This document shows positions 3,280-55,653 of a stretch of 64,000 nucleotides of DNA, in pieces. Each line of letters starts with the position of its first letter. Positions within the stretch are counted from its first letter, which is position 1. Source of the stretch: Candidatus Omnitrophota bacterium (lineage in GTDB: Bacteria > Omnitrophota > Gorgyraeia > Zapsychrales > JAHFFX01); the NCBI GenBank assembly GCA_023247725.1, contig JAHFFW010000003.1, positions 704 through 64,703 on the forward strand. The letters are read 5' to 3'. The position numbers and the translations under genes were made by a program. The notes below the pieces were generated by a model that was not told the DNA's origin, ran no database searches, and saw nothing but the letters and a program-made list of their open reading frames with translations.

Positions 3280-4311
3280 ATGCTGACCGCCGAAAAAATG
3301 ACCGCCTCCCACTTGTACGACATCCTTAAGCACATTAAGGTCGGGGGAAGCGTGTGTCATTATTCGCTTAAAAAATGTGAAGAGTTTGTGCCATTGATCA
3401 ATGAGATCAACGAACTCAAAGAAGAGAAAAAGGCCGTCATCCTGGCTCATTCCTACGTCAGCCCTGAGATCATCTACGGAGTGAGTGACTTTGTCGGGGA
3501 TTCCTACCAGCTCAGCAAAGACGCGATGTCAACCAACGTCAAAACGATCGTCTTTGCCGCGGTGCGGTTTATGGGCGAAACCGCGCAAATTCTAAACCCG
3601 GAGAAAGAGGTTCTCATTCCAGCCAGCGATGACGGCTGCACCTTGGCGGATTCGATCACAAACGAAAAAGTGCGGGAATTGCGTCTTCAGTTTCCGGATT
3701 ACACCTTTGTCTGCTACATCAATACGAGCGCCGCCGTCAAGGCCGAGTGCGATGTTTGCGTGACCTCCGCCAACGCTTATAAGGTCGTAGAACTCATTCC
3801 CAATGACAAAATCTATTTTCTGCCCGACCAAATGATGGGCATGAATATTCAGAATGCTTTTAAAGAAAAGGGAAGCAAAAAGGATATTCAATATTATTCT
3901 GGAACCTGTTACGTCCACGTCGAATACGGGGCTCAAGAGATTTTCAAAATCCGCACCGAGTATCCGGAGGTCAAGGTGATCAGCCATCCCGAATGCAGCC
4001 CGGCCGTCATCGCGAATTCTGATTTTGTCGGCAGCACGAATCAGATGCTGGATTATATGTTAAAGTCTTCAGACAAAGACTTCTTGATGCTGACCGAATG
4101 CGGTCTATCATCCCGACTGCAAGTGGAAATGCCTCACAAACGTTTAGTCGGATCTTGTACCTTATGCAAATTTATGAAGTCGAATGCCCTCGAGAATATC
4201 CTCCGGGTCCTCAAAAATCCCACCCGGAGAGACCGCGTGGAGATTCCCAAAGAAATCCAAGCCCGCGCCTTGAAATGTGTCGAGGCCATGTTCCGGTACA
4301 CGGAAGGCTAG
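3280..4311 (+). CDS. nadA: Quinolinate synthase NadA
   Basis: 343 aa with the NadA fold signature (ILAHSYV, conserved Cys spacing) and an upstream GGAAGGGAAAAGG RBS. Confidence 0.85.
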   Translation: MLTAEKMTASHLYDILKHIKVGGSVCHYSLKKCEEFVPLINEINELKEEKKAVILAHSYVSPEIIYGVSDFVGDSYQLSKDAMSTNVKTIVFAAVRFMGETAQILNPEKEVLIPASDDGCTLADSITNEKVRELRLQFPDYTFVCYINTSAAVKAECDVCVTSANAYKVVELIPNDKIYFLPDQMMGMNIQNAFKEKGSKKDIQYYSGTCYVHVEYGAQEIFKIRTEYPEVKVISHPECSPAVIANSDFVGSTNQMLDYMLKSSDKDFLMLTECGLSSRLQVEMPHKRLVGSCTLCKFMKSNALENILRVLKNPTRRDRVEIPKEIQARALKCVEAMFRYTEG

Positions 4312-5601: not shown

Positions 5602-6178
5602 TCATCAGATCATTGCTGGCCTCATTGAACCAAATTCCCGGGTCCTTGACCTGGGCTGTGGCAATGGGGAATTGTTGGCACTCTTGACCAAGGAAAAATC
5701 CATCAAGGGCACGGGGATCGAAATCAATGAGAAGGCCATCTACCATTGCATGGAAAAAGGGCTAACGGTTTCTCATGCCGACATTGATTCCGGCCTCGTC
5801 GATTATTCCAACAAACGTTTTGATTATGTGATCTTAAATGAAAGTTTGCAGGAAGTCTTAAATCCTGACAAGGTGATCATCGAGGCTTTGCGGGTTGGAA
5901 AAGAAGTTATCGTCGGAATTCCGAATTTTTGCCATATCCGAGCCCGCTGGCAAATTTTTTTACAAGGCCGGGTGCCGGTGACCAAGGAATTGCCTTACCA
6001 ATGGTACAACACGCCCAATTTGCGTTTTTTGAGCCTTAAGGATTTTCATCATTTTTGCCAAATAAAGGGCATCACCATTGAAAAAAAAATTGCCCTTTCC
6101 AACCATCACCGCATCATCCATTTTAAGCCCAACCTTTTTGCGCATACGGGAATTTATCTTTTAAGCAAGAATGTTTAA
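5573..6178 (+). CDS. metW: Methionine biosynthesis protein MetW
   Basis: 201 aa; [15 protein letters not shown]-MTase-like motif typical of MetW. Overlaps the metX end. Confidence 0.85.
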
Positions 6179-6181
6179 AGC

Positions 6182-7378
6182 ATGAAACAGAAGTATGATT
6201 TTCTTATTATAGGCTCGGGAATCATAGGCCTGACGATCGCGCATGCCATCAAACGCAAAGAGCCGATGGCTTCTATCTTGATTATAGAGAAAGAGAAGGA
6301 CGTGGCATGCCACGCCTCCGGACGCAATAGCGGTGTCTTGCATGCGGGATTTTATTACACCGCCGATAGCCTCAAAGCCAAATTTACCATCGCCGGTAAC
6401 CGCCTCATGAAAGAATACTGCCGGGCGAAGAAACTTCCTATCAATGAATGCGGAAAACTGGTCGTCGCCTCCAATGCCAACGAACTCACGAGCCTTTTTG
6501 AACTGGAAAAACGCGGCAAGGCCAATGGTTCGAATATCTGCATCATCTCAGAAAAAGAGGCCATGACCAAGGAGCCCAATGTCCGAACCCATCAATACGC
6601 CTTGTTCTCGCCAGAAACGGCGAGTATTGATCCCGTCGCTGTATGCCAGAGCTTAAAAAGTGATTTGAAAGAATCCGGCGTGGAATTCCGGTTCCAGACT
6701 TCCTATCTTGCTCACGATCATAACGTCGTCAAAACAAACCAAGGCGAACTATCGGCGACCAAAATCATCAATTGTGCCGGACTCTATGCTGACAAACTCG
6801 CCAAGGATTTTGGTTATGGACACCAGTATACGATGATCCCCTTTAAAGGACTTTACCTCAAATATACAAAAAATAAAACCGATGTAAAAATGCACATTTA
6901 TCCAGTGCCTAATCTCAAAAATCCCTTTCTCGGCGTCCATTTTACCATCACGGTCCGACAAGAAATCAAAATTGGGCCTACCGCCATTCCGGCCTTGTGG
7001 CGAGAAAATTACAACGGATTCGACAATTTTCAAATCACAGAATTAATCCATATCTTAAATCATGAGACCAGACTTTATCTGACCAATGCATTTGGATTCC
7101 GGGAGCTCGCTCACACAGAGATAAAAAAATATAATAAAAGTTATTTTATCAACCTCGCCTTGCAGATGGTTCAAAAGATTGACCCGAACGGATTCACCGA
7201 GTTCACTTCTCCCGGCATTCGGGCCCAATTATTGGACACCCGGGAAAATCGACTTGTTCAGGACTTTATTGTGGAAGGTGATCGAGACAGTGTGCATGTT
7301 CTGAACGCGGTGTCGCCGGCTTTCACCTGTGCGTTTCCATTTACTGAGTTTGTTGTCAACAAGTATATCCTTATATAA
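6182..7378 (+). CDS. lhgO: FAD-dependent L-2-hydroxyglutarate oxidase family protein (LhgO-like)
   Basis: N-terminal DFLIIGSGIIGL dinucleotide fold; CHASGRNSGVLHAGFYY and AKFTIAGNRLM closely resemble LhgO. Confidence 0.75.
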   Translation: MKQKYDFLIIGSGIIGLTIAHAIKRKEPMASILIIEKEKDVACHASGRNSGVLHAGFYYTADSLKAKFTIAGNRLMKEYCRAKKLPINECGKLVVASNANELTSLFELEKRGKANGSNICIISEKEAMTKEPNVRTHQYALFSPETASIDPVAVCQSLKSDLKESGVEFRFQTSYLAHDHNVVKTNQGELSATKIINCAGLYADKLAKDFGYGHQYTMIPFKGLYLKYTKNKTDVKMHIYPVPNLKNPFLGVHFTITVRQEIKIGPTAIPALWRENYNGFDNFQITELIHILNHETRLYLTNAFGFRELAHTEIKKYNKSYFINLALQMVQKIDPNGFTEFTSPGIRAQLLDTRENRLVQDFIVEGDRDSVHVLNAVSPAFTCAFPFTEFVVNKYILI

Positions 7379-16751: not shown

Positions 16752-17270
16752 TTATTTCTTCAAAACCGCAGGGGAATTTCGCTTTTGACGAGGAGTGTGC
16801 CCGATTCGTCTGCGGACAATGGTGTGGGAATGCGTATGATCATTTCTTGATCCAGAACACTCCGTGCAAATAACCCACGCCGATTGCCGGTTGAGGTAAT
16901 ACTCTTTTTTCCAAATGGGGAGCCGCATTTTGATGTTATCAATGATATAACGGCAGGCCGCAAAGGCATCTTGCCGGTGCGCCGAGGTGACCCCAACCCA
17001 CACCGCCATGTCTCCTACCGCTAACTTTCCGACGCGATGAACGCATTTGGCCTTGAGGATGGGAAACTTTTTTTTCACTTCCTGAAAAATCGCTTCGGCT
17101 TCCTTGGCACACAATTCCGGGAAAGCCTCGTATAGAAGTCCGGATACGCGCTTGCCTTCATTGTGATCGCGCACCCAGCCTTCGAAGATGGCTAATGCGC
17201 CAGCCCGAGGAGAACGCAAGGATTCTTTAAGTTTGGCTCCCTCTAAAGGTTGAGGAGAAAGGGAAAACAT
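16752..17270 (-). CDS. moaE: Molybdopterin synthase catalytic subunit MoaE
   Basis: 172 aa; MoaE-like core (GAL.IFEGWVRDHNEGK, MAVWVGVTSAHRQDAF, IWKKEYY). Confidence 0.85.
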   Translation of the reverse strand: MFSLSPQPLEGAKLKESLRSPRAGALAIFEGWVRDHNEGKRVSGLLYEAFPELCAKEAEAIFQEVKKKFPILKAKCVHRVGKLAVGDMAVWVGVTSAHRQDAFAACRYIIDNIKMRLPIWKKEYYLNRQSAWVICTECSGSRNDHTHSHTIVRRRIGHTPRQKRNSPAVLKK

Positions 17271-17277
17271 GGGAATG

Positions 17278-17320
17278 ATAAAAGTGTTAAGTGTTACTTG
17301 TCACTTGAAACTCTACACTC
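17278..17320. repeat. Family A repeat copy (AAGTGTTAAGTG core) in the 48-bp moaE-fdx spacer
   Basis: aaaagtgttaagtgtta... matches the cores at 17580-17610 and 31377-31446. Confidence 0.4.
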
Positions 17321-17573
17321 AAAAACTCGCCTTCACCACGCCGCCCACAATCACGCACTGACAACCCAGGCGGTGGGTTCGATCCATCGCCAAATCCTTT
17401 TCTTCCTGGTTCAATTCTCCCAGATTGTCTTGGCCTTCCAAGATATTGATCTGGCAGGTGCCGCAAACACCTGAGTTGCAGGAGAAGGGAACGCCGGCCT
17501 TTTCGCAAATCACGTCCAGTCTTGTTCCCTCCGGGATTTCGTATTCGATGTTGTCGATGATGAATTTGGCCAT
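17319..17573 (-). CDS. 2Fe-2S ferredoxin
   Basis: 84 aa with a CNSGVCGTCQ...GCQC Cys pattern (C-x4-C-x2-C ... C) of plant-type [2Fe-2S] ferredoxins. Confidence 0.85.
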   Translation of the reverse strand: MAKFIIDNIEYEIPEGTRLDVICEKAGVPFSCNSGVCGTCQINILEGQDNLGELNQEEKDLAMDRTHRLGCQCVIVGGVVKASF

Positions 17574-17579
17574 TGGATT

Positions 17580-17862
17580 CAGTGTAAAGTGTTAAGTGAA
17601 AAGTGTTAAGAGGAAACCCTTAATGATCGAGGCACTTGCCTAAACTAAAAACCATTTTGCATACTTCAACACATCAATGTTACGGTAAAGATTTCGTTCG
17701 TGAAGTCGAGGGTTTTTTGATAAACCTTTAATTTTTCAAAATCAAATTCAAAATCGTTTTGAGTCATGCTTCCTCCTTTGACTGATTGTCTGTCCAGTTG
17801 AAATGGGAAAACCGAACACTCAAAACACTTTTAACACTTAACACTTGGCACTTTACACTAAA
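17580..17862. mobile_element. MITE/IVS-like element of about 285 bp. Imperfect terminal inverted repeats built on AGTGTAAAGTG...AAGTGTTAAG enclose a truncated four-helix-bundle ORF.
   Basis: Left arm 17580-17610 (cagtgtaaagtgttaagtgaaaagtgttaag). Right arm 17816-17862 is its reverse complement (cttaacacttttaacacttaacacttggcactttacact) and overlaps the ispH stop. Confidence 0.45.
17666..17767 (-). pseudogene. Truncated four-helix-bundle protein (23S rRNA intervening-sequence protein / DGR Avd family), 33 codons
   Basis: MTQNDFEFDFEKLKVYQKTLDFTNEIFTVTLMC* matches helix 1 of the family (FE.L.VYQ.a..l..EIy..T). Perfect AGGAGGA RBS 5 nt upstream. No continuation in any frame. Confidence 0.45.
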
Positions 17863-18778
17863 CCATCGGCATCGGAAAGACGATATTTTTCTCCGGGTCA
17901 TCGAACTCATGCACAATCGCGTCCGGAGAAAACTCTTTGATCCTTTCAATCAATCGATCCACAATGACGCGAGGCACGGAAGCCCCGGAGGAGATGCCAA
18001 TGGTTTGTTTTCCCCTTAACCAGTCAAAATCCAATTCCTCCGCCGCGTCGATGATATGGCTCGGCACACCTTCTTGCTCACCGGTTTCTCGAAGGCGGTT
18101 GCTGTTGGATGAATTCGGAGATCCGCAGATGATGATGCAATCGCAAAATTTGGCCAGTTCCTTAACGGCATCCTGGCGGTTCTGAGTGGCATAGCAGATA
18201 TCTTCGCGAGGGGGAGCAACCAGATGAGGAAAACGTTTTTGCAATTTTTCAATTAACCCTTTGGTTTCGGTCACCGAGAGGGTGGTCTGGGTTAGGTAGC
18301 CAACGGATTTTTGCGGATCAATGGTAAGGGCGAGAATATCGTCTTCGTCCTCGACAATATGCAAAAGCTCCGGCGTCACGTACCCGGCTGTTCCAATCAG
18401 TTCCTGATGGCCTTTATGACCGATAAGAACAATTTCATAACCATTCTTGGAGAATTGAATCGCCTCGCGATGAACCTTATTCACCAGAGGACAAGTGGCA
18501 TCGATGTATTTGAGATTCTTGCGTTTGGCCTTCTCGATAACCTCCGGAGCCACGCCATGGGCACTAAAGATGACCCTTTCACCATCCGGAATCTGCGAAA
18601 GATCATCCACAAAAACAACCCCGCGCTTTTTAAAATCATTCACCACATAGGTATTATGAACGATCTCATGAAAAACGTAGAGGGGAGCCCCATATTTTTG
18701 CAGGACCGCTTCGACAATCTCGACCGCACTGGCAACGCCGGCGCAAAACCCCTGTGTCCTGGCCAAATAAATTTCCAC
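17858..18778 (-). CDS. ispH: 4-hydroxy-3-methylbut-2-enyl diphosphate reductase IspH
   Basis: MEIYLARTQGFCAGV start with the three conserved Cys of LytB; 306 aa. Confidence 0.9.
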   Translation of the reverse strand: MEIYLARTQGFCAGVASAVEIVEAVLQKYGAPLYVFHEIVHNTYVVNDFKKRGVVFVDDLSQIPDGERVIFSAHGVAPEVIEKAKRKNLKYIDATCPLVNKVHREAIQFSKNGYEIVLIGHKGHQELIGTAGYVTPELLHIVEDEDDILALTIDPQKSVGYLTQTTLSVTETKGLIEKLQKRFPHLVAPPREDICYATQNRQDAVKELAKFCDCIIICGSPNSSNSNRLRETGEQEGVPSHIIDAAEELDFDWLRGKQTIGISSGASVPRVIVDRLIERIKEFSPDAIVHEFDDPEKNIVFPMPMV

Positions 18779-24695: not shown

Positions 24696-24711
24696 TGGTT
24701 TGTCCTTTTTT

Positions 24712-24760
24712 GTGGCTCGTGGCCCGTGACCCGTCAACGGCCACGAGCCACAGGTCACGA
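24712..24760. repeat. GC-rich palindromic repeat, family B (pseudoknot-capable)
   Basis: gtggctcgtggcc-cgtgacccgtcaac-ggccacgagccac-aggtcacg: a perfect 13-bp stem, with loop segment cgtgacc complementary to the downstream ggtcacg. Confidence 0.45.
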
Positions 24761-31374: not shown

Positions 31375-31376
31375 CA

Positions 31377-31446
31377 CAGTGTAAAATGAAAAGTGTTAAG
31401 TGTCAGGTAATGGTATCAATTGACAACGAATGCCACTTAACACTTT
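31377..31446. repeat. Family A palindromic element: AAGTGTTAAGTG ... CACTTAACACTT, 12-bp perfect arms with a 31-nt spacer
   Basis: Left arm 31391-31402 and right arm 31434-31445, preceded by agtgtaaaatg as in the 17580 copy. Lies between the leuB-like gene and asd. Confidence 0.45.
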
Positions 31447-31458
31447 AAAAAAAACATT

Positions 31459-32472
31459 ATGAAAAAAATTAATAAAACCTACAACATCGCCGTCGTAGGA
31501 GTAGGGGCGGTCGGCGAAGCGATGCTGCGCGTGTTGCGCCAGCGGAAATTCCCGATTAATACACTGAGGATCTTTGCGCGCAGCGCCCGGACGATCAATG
31601 TCGATGGACAAGAATATTCCGTTGAGGAATTAACTCACGATTCGTTTCATGGGATCGATATCGCCCTTTTTGCTGGAACCGAAGGAGAAAAGGGGGCGGC
31701 GGTGACCTATGCGGCAAGTGCGATTAAGGCCGGGGCGGTCGTCATTGACAATGGCGCAGATTTTCGCATGAAAAAGGATGTTCCTCTCGTCGTACCGGAA
31801 GCAAATCCCGGCGATGTCAAAAACCATAAGGGCATCATTGCCAATCCCAACTGCTCGACGATCCAGATGGTCGTGGCGTTAGCCCCCATCAAAAAGAGAG
31901 CGGGACTCAAACGTGTTGTTGTTTCAACTTATCAGGCTGTTTCCGGTAGCGGCCGGGGAGGTATGGTTCAGATAGAAAAAGAATACCGCGCCTGGGCTGC
32001 CAATTCTTCCGAAAATATTCCCGTGGCCATGTCACAAACCATCCGGTTCAATATCTTCCCGCACATCGGAAGTTTTAATGCAGACGGTTCCACCACCGAA
32101 GAAATGAAAATGGTCCATGAAACCCGCAAAATCCTGCACGACAACAAAATCAAGATTTCTGCCACCACGGTGCGGGTCCCAGTTGTGAATGGCCATTCGG
32201 AAGCCGTTTACATCGAAACCACCAAGCCGATTTCTCCGGATTCGGTTCGATCCCTGCTCAAAAAATCTGCCGGGATCATTGTGATGGACGACCCTAAGAG
32301 CAATCTATACCCCATGCCCATCCACTGCGATGGCAAGGACGAAGTTTTTGTCGGGCGGATCCGGCGCGATGCATCAGTCAAAAACGGCTTATGGCTTTGG
32401 ATTGTCGCCGATAACTTGCGCAAAGGCGCCGCCACCAATGCCGTGCAGATTGCGGAATTGTTAATCAAATAG
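31459..32472 (+). CDS. asd: Aspartate-semialdehyde dehydrogenase
   Basis: NAD(P)-binding N terminus VVGVGAVG and the active-site NPNCSTI Cys motif. Confidence 0.9.
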   Translation: MKKINKTYNIAVVGVGAVGEAMLRVLRQRKFPINTLRIFARSARTINVDGQEYSVEELTHDSFHGIDIALFAGTEGEKGAAVTYAASAIKAGAVVIDNGADFRMKKDVPLVVPEANPGDVKNHKGIIANPNCSTIQMVVALAPIKKRAGLKRVVVSTYQAVSGSGRGGMVQIEKEYRAWAANSSENIPVAMSQTIRFNIFPHIGSFNADGSTTEEMKMVHETRKILHDNKIKISATTVRVPVVNGHSEAVYIETTKPISPDSVRSLLKKSAGIIVMDDPKSNLYPMPIHCDGKDEVFVGRIRRDASVKNGLWLWIVADNLRKGAATNAVQIAELLIK

Positions 32473-32563
32473 CGGATAGCGAATAGCGGACGAGACAATC
32501 TCAAAAACTTCTTGTCACAACTGACATCTCTGTCCGCTAACCGCTACACGCTGTCTCTTTGCA

Positions 32564-40540: not shown

Positions 40541-41704
40541 ATGAAAAAAGTTGTTCTGGCGTATTCCGGTGGACTTGACACCTCCTGCGCCATTCCGTGG
40601 CTCAAGGACAAAGGCTATGCGGTCATCGCCATGATCGCGGATGTTGGCCAAAAAGAAGACTTTGCTCAAATCAAGACCCGGGCGCTTAAAACCGGCGCCG
40701 CCAAAGTGCACGTGCTTGATTTGAAAAAGGAATTTGTTGAGAACTATGTATTCGCTGCCTTAAAGGCCGGCGCGGTTTACGAACGCAAATATTTTATGGC
40801 GACGTCCTTATCCCGCCCGATCATCGCTAAATATCAGGTCGAGGTGGCGCATCAAGAGAAGGCGACGGCCATTGCGCACGGCTGTACTGGAAAAGGAAAC
40901 GATCAAGTGCGTTTTGAAGTGACGGCCAAAATCCTTGATCCGAAACTAGAGACGATTGCGCCGGTGAGAATTTGGGAATTCAAAACCCGCGAGGAGGAAA
41001 TCGATTATTTGTACTCGAAAGGCGTGACGCTTGAAATCACCAAGAAGAAACCGTATTCCATCGACAAAAACATTTATGGGATGAGCATTGAGGCGGGCGT
41101 CCTGGAAGATCCATGGACCGAGCCGCCGGAAGATATTTACCAGATGACGACCTCACCGGAAAAGGCCCCATCGAAACCGATTTATTGTGAAATCGATTTC
41201 GGAAAAGGAATTCCCAAAAAACTGAACGGCAAATCCTATCATGGCGTCGTCTTATTAGAGAAGCTCAATCATATAGGGGGGACGCAGGGAATTGGCCGCG
41301 TGGATATGGTGGAAAATCGCTTGGTGGGGATTAAGTCCCGGGAAATCTATGAATGTCCCGGCGGTACGATCTTATTGACGGCCCATCAGGAACTCGAGGC
41401 CATGGTTTTGGATCGGGAAACGATGCGTTACAAACAGGGCGTTTCCCTCAAATACGCCGATCTGATTTACTACGGACTCTGGGAAACGCCCCTCAAAAAA
41501 CAACTGGATCAATACATCGAAGAAACTCAACGCCATGTGACGGGCACGATCCGATTGAAATTGTATAAAGGCAATTGCACGGTCGTCGGCCGTAAGTCGC
41601 CGTACTCCCGTTATAAAAAGGAACTGGCCACCTATGGCCACGGAGATCAGTTTGATCAGAAATTATCAGAAGGGTTTATTAAAATTTGGGGAATGCCGTA
41701 TTGA
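40541..41704 (+). CDS. argG: Argininosuccinate synthase ArgG
   Basis: AYSGGLDTS PP-loop; 387 aa. Confidence 0.9.
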   Translation: MKKVVLAYSGGLDTSCAIPWLKDKGYAVIAMIADVGQKEDFAQIKTRALKTGAAKVHVLDLKKEFVENYVFAALKAGAVYERKYFMATSLSRPIIAKYQVEVAHQEKATAIAHGCTGKGNDQVRFEVTAKILDPKLETIAPVRIWEFKTREEEIDYLYSKGVTLEITKKKPYSIDKNIYGMSIEAGVLEDPWTEPPEDIYQMTTSPEKAPSKPIYCEIDFGKGIPKKLNGKSYHGVVLLEKLNHIGGTQGIGRVDMVENRLVGIKSREIYECPGGTILLTAHQELEAMVLDRETMRYKQGVSLKYADLIYYGLWETPLKKQLDQYIEETQRHVTGTIRLKLYKGNCTVVGRKSPYSRYKKELATYGHGDQFDQKLSEGFIKIWGMPY

Positions 41705-41706
41705 TT

Positions 41707-41762
41707 CGTGACTCGTCGCCCGTGGCTCGTCTCGGGACACGAGTCACGGGTCCCGAGCCACT
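41707..41762. repeat. GC-rich repeat, family B, with interleaved (pseudoknot-type) complementarities
   Basis: gtgactcgt ... gtggctcg ... acgagtcac ... cgagccac in A-B-A'-B' order in the 73-bp argG-argH spacer. Confidence 0.45.
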
Positions 41763-41777
41763 AAAAAGGAAATCACC

Positions 41778-43121
41778 ATGACCAAACTCTGGGGAGGACG
41801 ATTTAGCAAAAAGACTGATCCAAGGGTGGAGGAGTTCACCCGGTCGATTCACTTTGACCGGAAACTCGCGGCCTACGATTGCATCGGCTCCTTGACGCAC
41901 ATCGATATCCTGAAGAAGGCGAATCTCATTTCTTCGAAAGAACATAAACACCTGCAAAGCGGTTTGGAGGAAATCCTTCAGTCCATTCGTCAAAGTCGAT
42001 TTCCGATTGATGAAACGGCGGAAGATATCCATACGGCGATCCAGCAGGCCTTAGAAAAAAAAGTGGGGAAGGTGGCGCTTAAACTCCACACCTGTCGCTC
42101 GCGCAACGATCAAGTTGTCTTTGCCACAAAACTCTTCTGCATGGAAGAGATCAAAAATATCCAAAAGCTTCTGGAAGGTCTTCGCCAAACCCTTTTTGAT
42201 GTGGCCTTAGAGAACTCAGACATTTACCTGCCGGGATATACTCATCTGCAGCATGCGATGCCCGTTCGGCTGGTCGATGTTCTTTTGGCTTATGAAGAAA
42301 TGTTCACGGCCGACCAAAAACGTCTGCAGAATGTCTATGAAGGCATTCACCTCAATATGGGCTCGGGAGCGCTCGCCGGGACTTTTATTGATGCCAAAAA
42401 CTATAATCAGGCGGTTCATTCGGTTCTTCCGGAACGATTGCAGGTGAAGTCGACGACCAATTCGATTTATACCGTGAGCGACCGTGATTTTGTCGTGGAT
42501 CTCTTGAATGCCTTGTCCATCACTGGCATGCATGCCTCGCGTTTGGCGGAGGATTTTATTCTGTGGGCCACCCAGGAATTCGATTTTATCGATATTGACG
42601 AATCGTTTTGCACGGGGAGTTCGCTCATGCCGCAGAAAAAAAATCCCGATGTCCTGGAACTCATCCGCGGCTACAGCGGGAGGCTTTATGGGAATCTTGT
42701 CAATGTATTGGTCGTTCTCAAAGGGCTGCCGTTGTCCTACAATCGCGATTTGCAGCACGACAAGGAACCCCTGTTTGATTCACTGCGGATCGTGAACGGC
42801 GAGTTGTCCATCTTGACGGCGTTATTGAAAAAGATTTCATTCAAAAAAACCAGCATCGAACGACAATTAGACGATGAATTGCTTTATGCGACGGATTTAG
42901 CTGATCATTTAGTCAAAAGCGGAGTTCCCTTCAAAGAGGCCCACTCCACGATTGGAAAGTTGGTCAGTTACAAACTTGCCCAAGGCAAGGACCTCATCCG
43001 CATGAGCGCGGAAGAATTAAAGGTATTTTCTCCCTTTTTGACCCCGGCGGTCATTCGCCATACCATCAATCCGAAACATTCGGTGCAGGCCAAAAAATCC
43101 GTCACCAAGCGGATCAAATAA
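41778..43121 (+). CDS. argH: Argininosuccinate lyase ArgH
   Basis: Fumarate-lyase family, GSSLMPQKKNPD signature. Confidence 0.9.
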   Translation: MTKLWGGRFSKKTDPRVEEFTRSIHFDRKLAAYDCIGSLTHIDILKKANLISSKEHKHLQSGLEEILQSIRQSRFPIDETAEDIHTAIQQALEKKVGKVALKLHTCRSRNDQVVFATKLFCMEEIKNIQKLLEGLRQTLFDVALENSDIYLPGYTHLQHAMPVRLVDVLLAYEEMFTADQKRLQNVYEGIHLNMGSGALAGTFIDAKNYNQAVHSVLPERLQVKSTTNSIYTVSDRDFVVDLLNALSITGMHASRLAEDFILWATQEFDFIDIDESFCTGSSLMPQKKNPDVLELIRGYSGRLYGNLVNVLVVLKGLPLSYNRDLQHDKEPLFDSLRIVNGELSILTALLKKISFKKTSIERQLDDELLYATDLADHLVKSGVPFKEAHSTIGKLVSYKLAQGKDLIRMSAEELKVFSPFLTPAVIRHTINPKHSVQAKKSVTKRIK

Positions 43122-44387: not shown

Positions 44388-44488
44388 GGTCACACCTCAC
44401 AAGGTCACCAGTCACAAGTGATATTGACCGTTCAAAATTCTTGAACAGTCCAACACCTGTGACGTTGTGACCTGTGGCGTTGTGACTT
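44388..44488. repeat. About 100-bp nested palindrome, family B (GTGAC/GTGGC-rich arms around a gttcaa-aattc-ttgaac core)
   Basis: Left arm ggtcacacctcacaaggtcaccagtcacaagtg is the approximate reverse complement of right arm cacctgtgacgttgtgacctgtggcgttgtgac. Confidence 0.45.
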
Positions 44489-52390: not shown

Positions 52391-52642
52391 ATGGCCCAAA
52401 AAGTCGCTAAGGTTGGAGTCAAAAAGGAAAAGGGGTTCCTGTACTTTGTCGACCGGCAAGGGGACGTCTCCTGCGCAAAAATGGCGCGCGGCAACAAAAA
52501 AGGCGGCGCCCCCAAAAAAGTCGCTAAAGTCGGTGTCAAGAAACAAGACGGATATCTGTACTTTCTTGACAAACAGGGTGATATTTCCTGCGCAAAATTA
52601 ATCCGCGGAGGAAAGAAAAAGAAATCGGCAAAAAGAAAATAA
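52391..52642 (+). CDS. Small basic protein (83 aa) made of two tandem copies of a 36-aa repeat: KVAKVGVKK..G(F/Y)LYF(V/L)D(R/K)QGD(V/I)SCAK
   Basis: Strong RBS GGAGGGAGG. Two half-length repeats visible at nt and aa level; Lys-rich tail. Confidence 0.55.
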   Translation: MAQKVAKVGVKKEKGFLYFVDRQGDVSCAKMARGNKKGGAPKKVAKVGVKKQDGYLYFLDKQGDISCAKLIRGGKKKKSAKRK

Positions 52643-52812
52643 ACCTCCTGTCATCAGGAGAATAATCGGCATCATAACCTTTTGCACCTCCCGGCCTGTC
52701 CCATTGCCACAGGACGGGGGGTGTGATAGGCTTTGTATTCTTCGATTGTTCCTGCTTTCCTTCTGCCGTATTCCCCACCCTGAGCTCACCATTGAAATCA
52801 AAGGCTGCTCCC

Positions 52813-55653
52813 ATGCAAAATAATTTCATCACCATCCGTGGTGCCAAAGAACACAATTTAAAGAATATTGACCTCAAGATTCCCCGCAATCAGCTGGTCG
52901 TCGTGACCGGTTTGAGCGGTTCAGGAAAATCATCGTTGGCCTTCGATACCATTTACGCCGAAGGCCAGCGCCGGTATGTCGAAAGTCTTTCGGCCTATGC
53001 CCGGCAATTCCTGGAACAACTGCAGAAACCCGACGTGGAAGCAATTGAAGGGCTGTCTCCGACCATCTCCATTGAACAAAAAACCACCAGCCGCAATCCG
53101 CGTTCTACGGTCGCGACCCAAACAGAGATTTATGACTATTTGCGTTTGCTGTTCGCCCGTATTGGAACGCCTCACTGTTATCAATGCGGCAAGAAAATTG
53201 AACGCCAAACCGTTCCCGAGATTGCCGGACAAATTCTTAAACTAGAACCGGGAACCGCCATTAATATCCTTGCACCGTTGGTGCGCGGCCGCAAAGGCGA
53301 ATATCGGCAAATCCCCAAACAGGTCGCGCAGGCCGGCTTTGTCCGGATTCGGGTCGATGGAAAAATTCGCGATATCCAGCCGCCTTTGGTTTTGGATAAA
53401 TTCAAGATTCACCATATTGAAGTTGTGGTTGATCGCTTGACCGTTAGACCGGAAATCCGCAAGCGCCTGACGGATTCGATTGAAACGGCCTTGCAGACCG
53501 GCGATGGTTTGGTGATGGTCGATTTTAACGGACAGGCCCCCGATCGCATCTTCAGCGAAAAATATGCCTGCGTTGATTGCGGGATCAGCATCGTCGAGAT
53601 CGAACCGCGGATTTTTTCTTTCAATTCCCCTTATGGCGCGTGTCCGACGTGCAACGGGCTCGGAACCAAAATGGAGATTGATCCGGAACTCATTGTTCCG
53701 GATCCCGCAAAACCGTGGGTTCAGGCCGTTGTGCCCTGGCACAAAGGCGGACGCGGATTTATGTTTTATTATCGCGCGGTTTTTCGCGAGATTGCGCAAC
53801 GCTATGGCGTTCAATCGGACAGCCCTTATCAAAATTTAAACAAACGTTTTAAAAATATCATCCTTTATGGATCCCATGATGTCATTTGGGGCAGACAATT
53901 TGAAGGCGTCCTGGCTTACCTGGAACGTTTATTTAGAGAAACCGATAACGAATGGCTCAAAGATGAACTTGCCAGATTCATGTCGGTTTTGCCTTGTCCT
54001 GACTGTACGGGTCAGCGGTTAAAAAAAGAATCCCTGGCGGTCAAGATCGCGGATAAGGATATTGCGGAGGTGACCGCCCTTCCCATCAAAGAGGCCAAAC
54101 AATTTTTCCAGACACTGTCCTTGAGCCGTGATCAGCAAACCATTAGCGTTCCCATCTTAAAAGAGATTTGCCGACGTTTGGACTTCTGCATCAATGTCGG
54201 ATTGGAATATCTCACCTTAGACCGGCGCAGCGCCACCCTTTCCGGCGGGGAAGCCGAACGCATTCGCCTGGCAACGCAAGTGGGTTCCGGATTGGTGGGC
54301 GTCATTTATATCCTGGACGAACCCAGCATTGGTTTGCACCAAAAAGATAATGAACGGCTTTTGTCGACACTGCAGTCCTTACGGGATTTAGGGAACAGTC
54401 TCATTGTGGTCGAGCATGATGAGGCCACCATTCGGGCCGCGGATTTCATTATTGATCTAGGCCCCGGAGCCGGGGAATACGGCGGGGAAATCATTTATGC
54501 CGGGGACATCCCGGGGCTGTTACGATCGCCCGATTCTTTAACCGGCCAATATCTGCGCGGACAATTGCGGATTCCGATACCCGACAAAAGACGAGAAACC
54601 CTCAAAACCCCTCAGTTAAAAATCTGGGGAGCTAAAGAACATAATCTAAAAAACATTGATGTCATTCTGCCTTTAGGCGCCTTTATCGCCATCACCGGCG
54701 TTTCCGGGTCCGGAAAATCCACTCTGGTCGATGACATCCTTTATAAAGCCCTCGCGCAAAAAATCTATCGTTCAAAAGAAAAGCCCGGCGAATTCAAAAA
54801 AATCGAAGGAGTCGAACAGCTCGATAAGGTGATTGTCGTTGATCAATCGCCGATTGGCCGCACACCCCGTTCGAATCCGGCCACCTACACCGGTCTTTTT
54901 AGTCCCATCCGCGACTTATTCAGCCAATTGCCCGAAGCTAAACTGCGCGGCTATAAACCCGGCCGCTTTAGTTTCAATGTCAAGGGCGGCCGCTGCGAGG
55001 CCTGCTCCGGAGACGGGATTAAAAAAATCGAAATGCATTTTCTTCCCGATGTCTATGTCGAGTGCGAGGTCTGTCACGGTCAGCGCTTCACCGAACAAAC
55101 GCTCGATATCCAGTATAAGGGAAAGACGATCGCGCAAGTTCTCAATCTTGCCGTGGATGAGGCCATGACTGTTTTTGAAAATATCCCCCGCATCAAAAAT
55201 ATTTTGCAGACCTTGCACGACGTGGGACTAGGCTACATCAAGTTGGGTCAATCAGCGACGACCCTTTCCGGCGGAGAAGCCCAACGCGTCAAACTCGCGA
55301 GCGAACTGTGCAAAACCGCCACCGGCCGGACGCTTTATATCCTGGATGAACCCACGACGGGCCTGCATTTTGCCGATGTGGAAAAACTTCTGGGGGTTTT
55401 GCAGCGTTTGGTCGACCGGGGCAATACGGTGCTCGTCATTGAGCACAACTTGGAAGTCATTAAGAACGCGGATTATATTGTCGACTTGGGACCGGAGGGA
55501 GGGGACCGGGGAGGGCAGATCATCTTTGCCGGCACGCCGGAAGACATCATCAAAGAAAAGTCGTCTCACACCGGACGCTATCTCAAGGATATACTTTTAC
55601 CGCCGCAAAAAACGCGCGTGGGCCAAATCTCAAGCGTTGGAATTTCGTCGTGA
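52813..55653 (+). CDS. uvrA: Excinuclease ABC subunit A UvrA
   Basis: [16 protein letters not shown] start, two ABC modules with Walker [10 protein letters not shown] and GVSGSGKST and the zinc-finger Cys clusters. Confidence 0.95.

Follow-up and report, generated by a model that had tools for sequence, protein, structure and literature searches.

The closest described systems are the intervening sequences (IVSs) of 23S rRNA genes. In Coxiella burnetii, the 23S IVS is closed by a 28-bp terminal stem, three tandem GACAGAT heptamers and one degenerate copy precede the start of the S23p open reading frame (ORF) in a number that varies between strains, and RNase III cuts where the first repeat begins (PMC4990558). 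The S23p ORF is sense to the host transcript and is being eroded by reductive evolution, strain AuQ01 having lost 176 bp of it, and its product assembles as a ring of five four-helix bundles (PMC4990558). IVSs without an ORF occur in Salmonella or Yersinia, and the origin and function of rRNA IVSs and S23p ORFs have been open for about 30 years, with few rRNA-borne examples studied (PMC4990558). The present analysis concerns a window of 64,000 nt (the whole stretch of DNA that was analysed) from a Candidatus Omnitrophota bacterium (contig JAHFFW010000003.1), a metagenomic sequence found identically in two other assemblies. Within this window, positions 17578-17862 probably represent a decayed IVS-type hairpin cassette that lies outside rRNA and was inserted in a protein-coding operon.

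The protein family concerned, here abbreviated 4HB (four-helix-bundle family PF05635 / Avd-like; TIGR02436, PF22296), is also known outside rRNA. It includes Avd, the accessory protein of diversity-generating retroelements (DGRs) (PMC10053308), and 18 genes labelled '23S_rRNA_IVP' have been reported between cas genes, for example as cmr3|IVP|cmr2 in Pleurocapsa, where the arrangement was read as a functional CRISPR-Cas association (PMC3936711). In the literature searched, which largely excluded subscription journals, non-rRNA 4HB genes are mentioned as genes and not as hairpin cassettes, and hairpin or heptamer arms around them are undescribed.

The element occupies a minus-strand operon in which ispH (18778..17858) is followed by fdx, a 2Fe-2S ferredoxin gene (17573..17319), moaE (17270..16752) and then murB; the spacer between ispH and fdx measures 284 nt (17574-17857) and that between fdx and moaE 48 nt. 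As the first-pass annotation had described, the larger spacer is bounded by imperfect inverted repeats of about 35 bp: the arms at 17578-17612 and 17828-17862 are 35 nt each, 83% complementary and 215 nt apart, the longest pair among inverted repeats less than 700 nt apart in the window. Each arm consists of about five tandem AGTGTWA heptamers (period 7 in Tandem Repeats Finder, TRF). In operon orientation, the upstream (5') arm (17828..17862, minus strand; TTTAGTGTAAAGTGCCAAGTGTTAAGTGTTAAAAG) contains the ispH stop codon TAG (17860-17858), an overlap also recorded in that annotation, and degenerate heptamer units run inward from it to approximately 17813. The downstream (3') arm (17578..17612, minus strand) reads CTCTTAACACTTTTCACTTAACACTTTACACTGAA, and the fdx ATG (17573) lies 4 nt past its end. 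The heptamer motif exceeds its expected frequency: AAGTGTTAAG occurs 8 times in the window with at most one mismatch, compared with 2.05 expected, a count reached in 0 of 100 shuffles, and AGTGTWA sites number three in the window.

Between the arms, a Shine-Dalgarno sequence, AGGAGG (17772..17777, minus strand), precedes a minus-strand ORF of 33 codons (ORF33; 17666..17767; MTQNDFEFDFEKLKVYQKTLDFTNEIFTVTLMC plus stop), whose sequence is as originally quoted; the residual interior (17613..17665, minus strand) has no recognised coding content. The ribosome-binding site itself was correctly noted, whereas its spacing of five nucleotides was not: the minus strand reads AGGAGG (17777..17772), AAGC and ATG, that is AGGAGG-N4-ATG (or AGGAGGA-N3-ATG). 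GGAGG or AGGAG lies upstream of just 3 of the 53 long ORFs in the window, and a strong Shine-Dalgarno sequence is thus uncommon for this genome.

A suggested folding of the spacer bore out the hairpin. The transcribed minus strand (17870..17570) gives a minimum free energy of -89.4 kcal/mol with the arms paired (z = -5.85; equalled by 0 of 100 shuffles), and the predicted stem is a series of short helices broken by small internal loops at the variable positions of the heptamers. In the same fold, the ORF33 Shine-Dalgarno sequence pairs with UUUCCUCUU (17616..17608). The mismatches between the arms fall on the variable unit positions and cores of 4-5 nt are kept in both arms, a pattern that fits protein-binding repeats or a DNA-level hairpin equally well as an RNA stem. 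Rfam, applied at gathering and permissive thresholds, returned no rRNA and no other family in the window. No terminator-like site was detected on the minus strand from ispH to moaE; the 3' arm is followed by GAATCCAATG, and the element shows no GC-rich hairpin with a T-run of the kind that marks an intrinsic terminator. The absence of an intrinsic terminator between ispH and moaE suggests that the spacer is co-transcribed with the operon.

Promoter-like sequences were also observed in the arms. Both carry an outward-facing sigma-70-like TTAACA-N17-TACACT (9/12), at 17831-17859 (+) and 17609-17581 (-), and a GTGACA-N18-TATCAT match (10/12) directed toward moaE lies in a small hairpin of the fdx-moaE spacer (17304-17275, minus strand). 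These matches may be a by-product of the 7-nt periodicity, or the arms may act as outward promoters.

The identity of ORF33 was assessed with a custom hidden Markov model (HMM) built from 120 PF05635 / PF22296 proteins. Among the 2355 six-frame fragments of the window, ORF33 ranked first (11.3 bits, E = 0.038), its residues 9-30 forming helix 1 and its alignment covering profile positions 4-25 in the correct register from the start codon; none of 5000 shuffled ORF33 peptides reached this score (maximum 9.9 bits). When 1.84 billion representative proteins were scanned exhaustively with HMMER, the only match was the 58-aa protein P0122 (E = 4.9e-5), which is 68% identical to ORF33 over residues 2-29. 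P0122 is a truncated 4HB protein that retains the C-terminal end besides the N-terminus, and P0123 and P0124, which are 95-98% identical to it, have the annotation PF05635 or 'four helix bundle protein' as well as the NNIAEG motif of the family. The homology of ORF33 to the 4HB family, as judged from these comparisons, is therefore real but transitive, via P0122, P0123 and P0124, and the earlier assignment of the peptide to helix 1 holds in that sense.

What remains of the gene is small. With 33 codons, ORF33 falls short of the approximately 115-130 aa of a four-helix protein, and the GxxRxxxSxxxNxxE / NIAEG motif is absent from all six frames of the window, which holds no full-length 4HB gene; ORF33 is therefore a pseudogene remnant and not a functional family member. 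Reading through its stops does not extend the 4HB match and the other frames of the spacer give none, so that the rest of the 4HB ORF is absent, in agreement with the first-pass annotation. A frame continuing through two stops into helix 2 had been considered by eye ('RQVPRS' resembling 'SQIRRA') and was dropped, as the HMM alignment does not extend into it. The loop measures 215 nt here and 366-388 nt in full-length cassettes, which corresponds to approximately 170 nt (helices 2-4) missing. The 33-aa peptide is most likely non-functional.

Decay of the same kind can be followed in relatives. In the closest relative cassette, L214, a 4HB pseudogene ORF of 93 aa lies between HIT and HD genes; the start of ORF33 aligns clearly with this gene at the DNA level, the similarity stopping after codon 27 or thereabouts. 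The loci L210-L213 are orthologous to L214 and lack 192 nt between two 10-nt copies of TCGGCGGCAA (4122-4131 and 4314-4323 in L214; compared region of L210, 4001-4177), which leaves the 58-aa P0122. The step from L214 to L210 is thus a case of cassette decay in situ by microhomology deletion.

Full-length relatives define the architecture from which such remnants derive. A metagenome scan for the arm pattern recovered L116, in which a 119-aa PF05635 ORF (100.4 bits) is enclosed between inverted (AGTGTAA)5 arms of 38 nt that are 95% complementary, the cassette being located between a carA-like gene and carB. A 4HB gene was present in just this 1 of the 120 pattern-matching loci, and the other matches were mostly kilobase-long heptamer satellites from one sample (Ga0126342). 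In that sample, AGTGTAA-like heptamer arrays extend over kilobases in many contigs (L083-L202; for example L093, 6912-9391); they look like satellite DNA, possibly eukaryotic, that is unrelated to the cassettes. A separate observation was made in L100, where an intergenic region (5980-6560) is dense with differing heptamer arrays (AGTGACA, TGACCAA/CAATGAC, CGTTGAC) and resembles the short tandemly repeated repetitive (STRR) sequences of cyanobacteria; AGTGTAA and AGTGACA units in inverted orientation are separated there by about 400 nt devoid of a 4HB ORF.

Nine further 4HB loci were chosen by protein identity alone, and their genomic context was then compared. All nine genes lie between co-oriented housekeeping genes, the neighbours being prs|hom, epimerase|epimerase (three loci), hemF|hemB, HIT|HD, moxR|DUF58 and TrbL-region|PrgI. 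Flanking inverted arms of 14-38 nt were present in every case, with period 7 in seven loci and period 8 in two, and inverted-repeat scores ranged from 13 to 33, whereas 37 control genes from the same loci and the window averaged 7.4 and did not exceed 12. Among 43 distinct 4HB genes on IMG/VR contigs, 29 scored above 12 (period 7 in 25, period 8 in three and period 11 in one) and the remaining 14 had no recognisable arms. Taken together, the 9/9 and 29/43 armed genes against 0/37 controls, along with the heptamers of the Coxiella IVS, indicate that the link between gene and arms is general. Its direction may be that cassettes decay to solo hairpins or that 4HB genes prefer hairpins.

The arms share a layout rather than a sequence. 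They hold 4-5 units each at 7-8-nt spacing; within a unit, a core of 4-5 nt is conserved and 2-3 positions vary, often giving mismatches in the stem, and the heptamer differs by cassette (AGTGTAA, CGTGAWT, AGCTKTC, AGTKWAC, AGTCTGT, AGGCTGT). The upstream stop codon usually lies 0-14 nt from the arm or within it, and the downstream start 0-23 nt from the arm. The 4HB gene is co-oriented with its neighbours in all ten cellular loci, and its product is the sole protein encoded in full-length cassettes, which contain no transposase domain.

An element-free counterpart of the site is provided by the closest GTDB genome, L003, whose IspH is 76% identical and which has the same order ispH-fdx-moaE-murB. 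The spacers of L003 are 25 nt (ispH-fdx) and about 5 nt (fdx-moaE), and neither the 284-nt element nor the small fdx-moaE hairpin of the AGTGTWA type is present in it. Because the gene order is the same and the spacer is only 25 nt long there, the ispH-fdx element is read as an insertion. Across 80 genome loci selected by IspH, the AGTGTTAAGTG motif was absent save for one chance match, and the custom 4HB HMM found no 4HB gene in those loci (1.27 Mb).

Additional hairpins of the same build are spread over the window. At least six further hairpins with tandem-heptamer arms and no ORF were identified, all between co-oriented genes and at about one per 9 kb. Two are of the AGTGTWA type: a degenerate one that fills the fdx-moaE spacer from the fdx stop (17271-17318, minus strand; fold z -1.5) and one between an Iso_dh-family dehydrogenase gene and asd (31376-31446, plus strand; z -2.6). 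The others belong to three further unit families, namely ATAGCGN between asd and the next gene (32466-32550; z -7.1), CGTGRCY/GTGGCYC between a gene ending at 41704 and one starting at 41778 (CGTGRCY; 41705-41762; z -4.4) and between glyoxalase and AhpC-like genes (GTGGCYC; 24711-24752; z -5.7), and GTCACAN between lysA and dapF (44390-44483; z -6.1). These hairpins often touch the upstream stop codon, and the asd TAG (32470-32472) lies inside the first unit. Their loops show no similarity to the interior of the ispH-fdx element, the arms alone matching. By analogy with the ORF-less IVSs of Salmonella and Yersinia, they may represent the end state of cassette decay.

Combined, these results are consistent with the following course of events. 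A full cassette consists of a PF05635 / Avd-like gene in the loop of a long hairpin whose arms are built of 4-5 tandem 7-nt units. Such a cassette, which we infer to be mobile now or formerly, would have entered the short ispH-fdx spacer of the minus-strand operon in the operon's own orientation, and helices 2-4 would then have been lost, leaving helix 1 behind its own Shine-Dalgarno sequence. In the transcript, the arms would pair into a stem of approximately 35 bp made of short helices with small internal loops, setting the ispH stop beside the fdx start at the stem base. With stop and start at the base of one stem, an operon packed this tightly could have tolerated the insertion. RNase III probably cuts the stem, as it does in rRNA IVSs, in which case the loop would be excised and the two cistrons separated. 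In the present copy, just the RNA or DNA hairpin could still act.

Several observations weigh against this account. The first-pass annotation had proposed a search of the peptide against PF05635 / TIGR02436 models, and direct searches gave nothing useful: neither ORF33 nor a version of it extended by frameshift matched a Pfam or NCBIfam model in hmmscan, phmmer of the read-through ORF33 against the PDB gave a chance galectin match only (E = 0.74), and a word-indexed protein search with the read-through peptide returned only itself. The intermediate P0122 matches PF05635 at E = 1.8e-4 and bAvd at E = 3.9e-5, both below the gathering cut-offs, so that the family assignment passes through a chain of relatives. 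No full-length AGTGTWA-armed copy from the same genome is present in the 64 kb read, and the element ends (...GATGG / element / TCCAATGG...) show no target-site duplication. The arm mismatches are not biased towards sense-strand G·U pairs (7, compared with 9 on the antisense strand and 31 others), and selection for an RNA stem, rather than for a DNA hairpin or repeated protein-binding motifs, thus lacks support. L003 alone among the fetched genomes shares the gene order and there is no outgroup to polarise insertion versus loss; the polarity is taken from the foreign content of the spacer, not from an outgroup. On the viral contigs (L220-L270), the orientation of the 4HB gene is mixed and often antisense or convergent (for example L233, L252 and L242), as judged by a crude ORF heuristic and three spot checks, so that reliance on host-operon transcription is not general.

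Other explanations were weighed on the same evidence. The hairpins could be a host intergenic repeat family, similar to repetitive extragenic palindromic (REP) sequences, bacterial interspersed mosaic elements (BIMEs) or STRR sequences, that has nothing to do with 4HB genes, a 4HB fragment having landed among them or the ORF similarity being fortuitous. The ORF-less hairpins of the window, with their several heptamer families, speak for this, as does the commonness in metagenomes of heptamer arrays without a 4HB gene (the 1/120 yield of the pattern scan); the explanation is nevertheless unlikely, given that the ORF33 homology is not fortuitous (0/5000 shuffles, P0122 and the DNA alignment to L214), that independently chosen 4HB genes lie between such arms at frequencies of 9/9 and 29/43 compared with 0/37 in controls, and that the Coxiella IVS has tandem heptamers too. 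We also regard it as rather improbable that ORF33 and the hairpin form a regulatory device, in which a leader-like micro-ORF or a helix-1 micropeptide would be translated, open the stem and thereby control fdx-moaE. The strong ORF33 Shine-Dalgarno sequence in a genome that seldom uses one would be explained by such a device, and so would its pairing in the predicted fold with the fdx start at the stem base, the identity of the sequence in three assemblies and the retention of the same N-terminus in a second, independent truncated form. The identical assemblies, however, amount to one population, L003 runs the same operon without the element, and the Shine-Dalgarno sequence is accounted for as the ribosome-binding site that the 4HB gene originally had; P0122, for its part, keeps the C-terminal end and arose by repeat-mediated deletion, which points to decay rather than design.

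Two further possibilities had been raised by the labels of the first-pass annotation, neither of which is supported. A classical miniature inverted-repeat transposable element (MITE), that is, a non-autonomous DNA transposon shortened by deletion and mobilised in trans by a transposase encoded elsewhere, would be small and internally deleted with inverted repeats at its ends, features also seen here, and the element-free orthologous site in L003 would suit it; some transposons have subterminal arrays of short binding sites, which the tandem-motif arms resemble. This origin is very unlikely, as the ends show no target-site duplication, the full-length form encodes the 4HB protein alone with no evident transposase parent, and the three AGTGTWA sites of the window have the arm motif in common but no element body. 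A DGR remnant, which would have comprised Avd, a reverse transcriptase (RT) and a template repeat/variable repeat (TR/VR) pair, finds a foothold in the membership of Avd in the 4HB family (PF22296 matches; PMC10053308) and is close to negligible on everything else: the neighbours are ispH and fdx, with no RT or variable-protein gene beside them (not every ORF of the window was searched for RT domains), the surroundings of the element hold no long direct repeat of the TR/VR type (direct repeats of at least 40 nt occur only at 52.4 kb and 46-47 kb), and the arms and the operon position match IVS-type cassettes instead. The 97-nt direct repeat at 52395-52491 / 52512-52608 (72% identity, spacing 117 nt) is far from the element and just upstream of a large ORF (52723-55653); TRF reports an 18-nt repeat, CAAAAAAGGCGCGCGCCAA, at 52476-52524.

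A decayed IVS-type cassette in a protein-coding operon, as the first-pass annotation had proposed, is therefore the reading we prefer, with the full-length relatives, the layout of the Coxiella IVS and the element-free site in L003 all agreeing with it. A broader proposal can be put forward more tentatively, and we consider it speculative: 4HB genes might be, instead of ordinary genes, the cargo of a very widespread and as yet undescribed type of hairpin cassette that settles in rRNA helices, as the classical IVSs do, and with greater frequency in the spacers of protein operons, with arms that bind the pentameric 4HB ring and with the abundant STRR-like ORF-less hairpins as non-autonomous or decayed derivatives. 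Binding of the 4HB ring at the arms would then mediate the spread or maintenance of the cassettes.

If such cassettes are common in operon spacers, then rRNA IVSs, scattered 4HB genes (including those in cas loci) and intergenic heptamer hairpins become one problem. That problem would be testable, with hundreds of filled and empty sites and a defined RNA or DNA motif to be set against a protein, and it would come with a decay series running from full-length cassette through internal deletion to solo hairpin. It would also follow that the presence of a 4HB gene in an operon or defence locus should not be taken to mean that it works together with the adjoining genes; the enrichment of IVP genes among cas genes, in particular, may be explained more simply by insertion of hairpin cassettes into operon spacers.

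Compared with known systems, the element shares with MITEs its small size, terminal inverted repeats and appearance as a deletion derivative of a longer element, and differs from them in lacking a target-site duplication and a transposase-encoding parent. With cyanobacterial STRR sequences, and with REP sequences, BIMEs and REP doublets forming hairpins (REPINs), it has in common short 7-nt tandem units or palindromes that form hairpins in operon spacers. REP sequences are tied to REP-associated tyrosine transposases (RAYTs), of which there is no evidence here, and to our knowledge neither STRR nor REP elements enclose a gene. The Avd proteins of DGRs (such as bAvd of Bordetella phage BPP-1; PF22296) belong to a homologous four-helix-bundle fold family, and S23p, like them, is a pentamer; unlike a DGR Avd gene, the element is near no RT, TR/VR pair or variable-protein target, and we know of no description of DGR Avd genes lying within heptamer hairpins. 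The free-standing 4HB genes (PF05635 / TIGR02436) are of the same family and likewise sit between the genes of unrelated operons, including carA|carB and cmr3|cmr2; the copy here is a 33-codon remnant.

The likeness to 23S IVSs (Coxiella, Leptospira; PMC4990558) extends to the whole plan: terminal inverted repeats forming a stem of about 28-35 bp, heptamers in the 5' region (three to four GACAGAT in Coxiella and five AGTGTWA here), a PF05635 ORF in the loop that is sense to the host transcript, and a large internal deletion of that ORF (176 bp in AuQ01 and approximately 170 nt here). Unlike a 23S IVS, the element lies between protein-coding genes of an operon and not in rRNA helix 9, 25 or 45, helix 1 alone remains of its ORF, and its excision by RNase III is predicted by analogy. 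What emerges here is a probable IVS-type cassette, decayed, in a protein-coding operon, a relic that exposes the general architecture of such cassettes.

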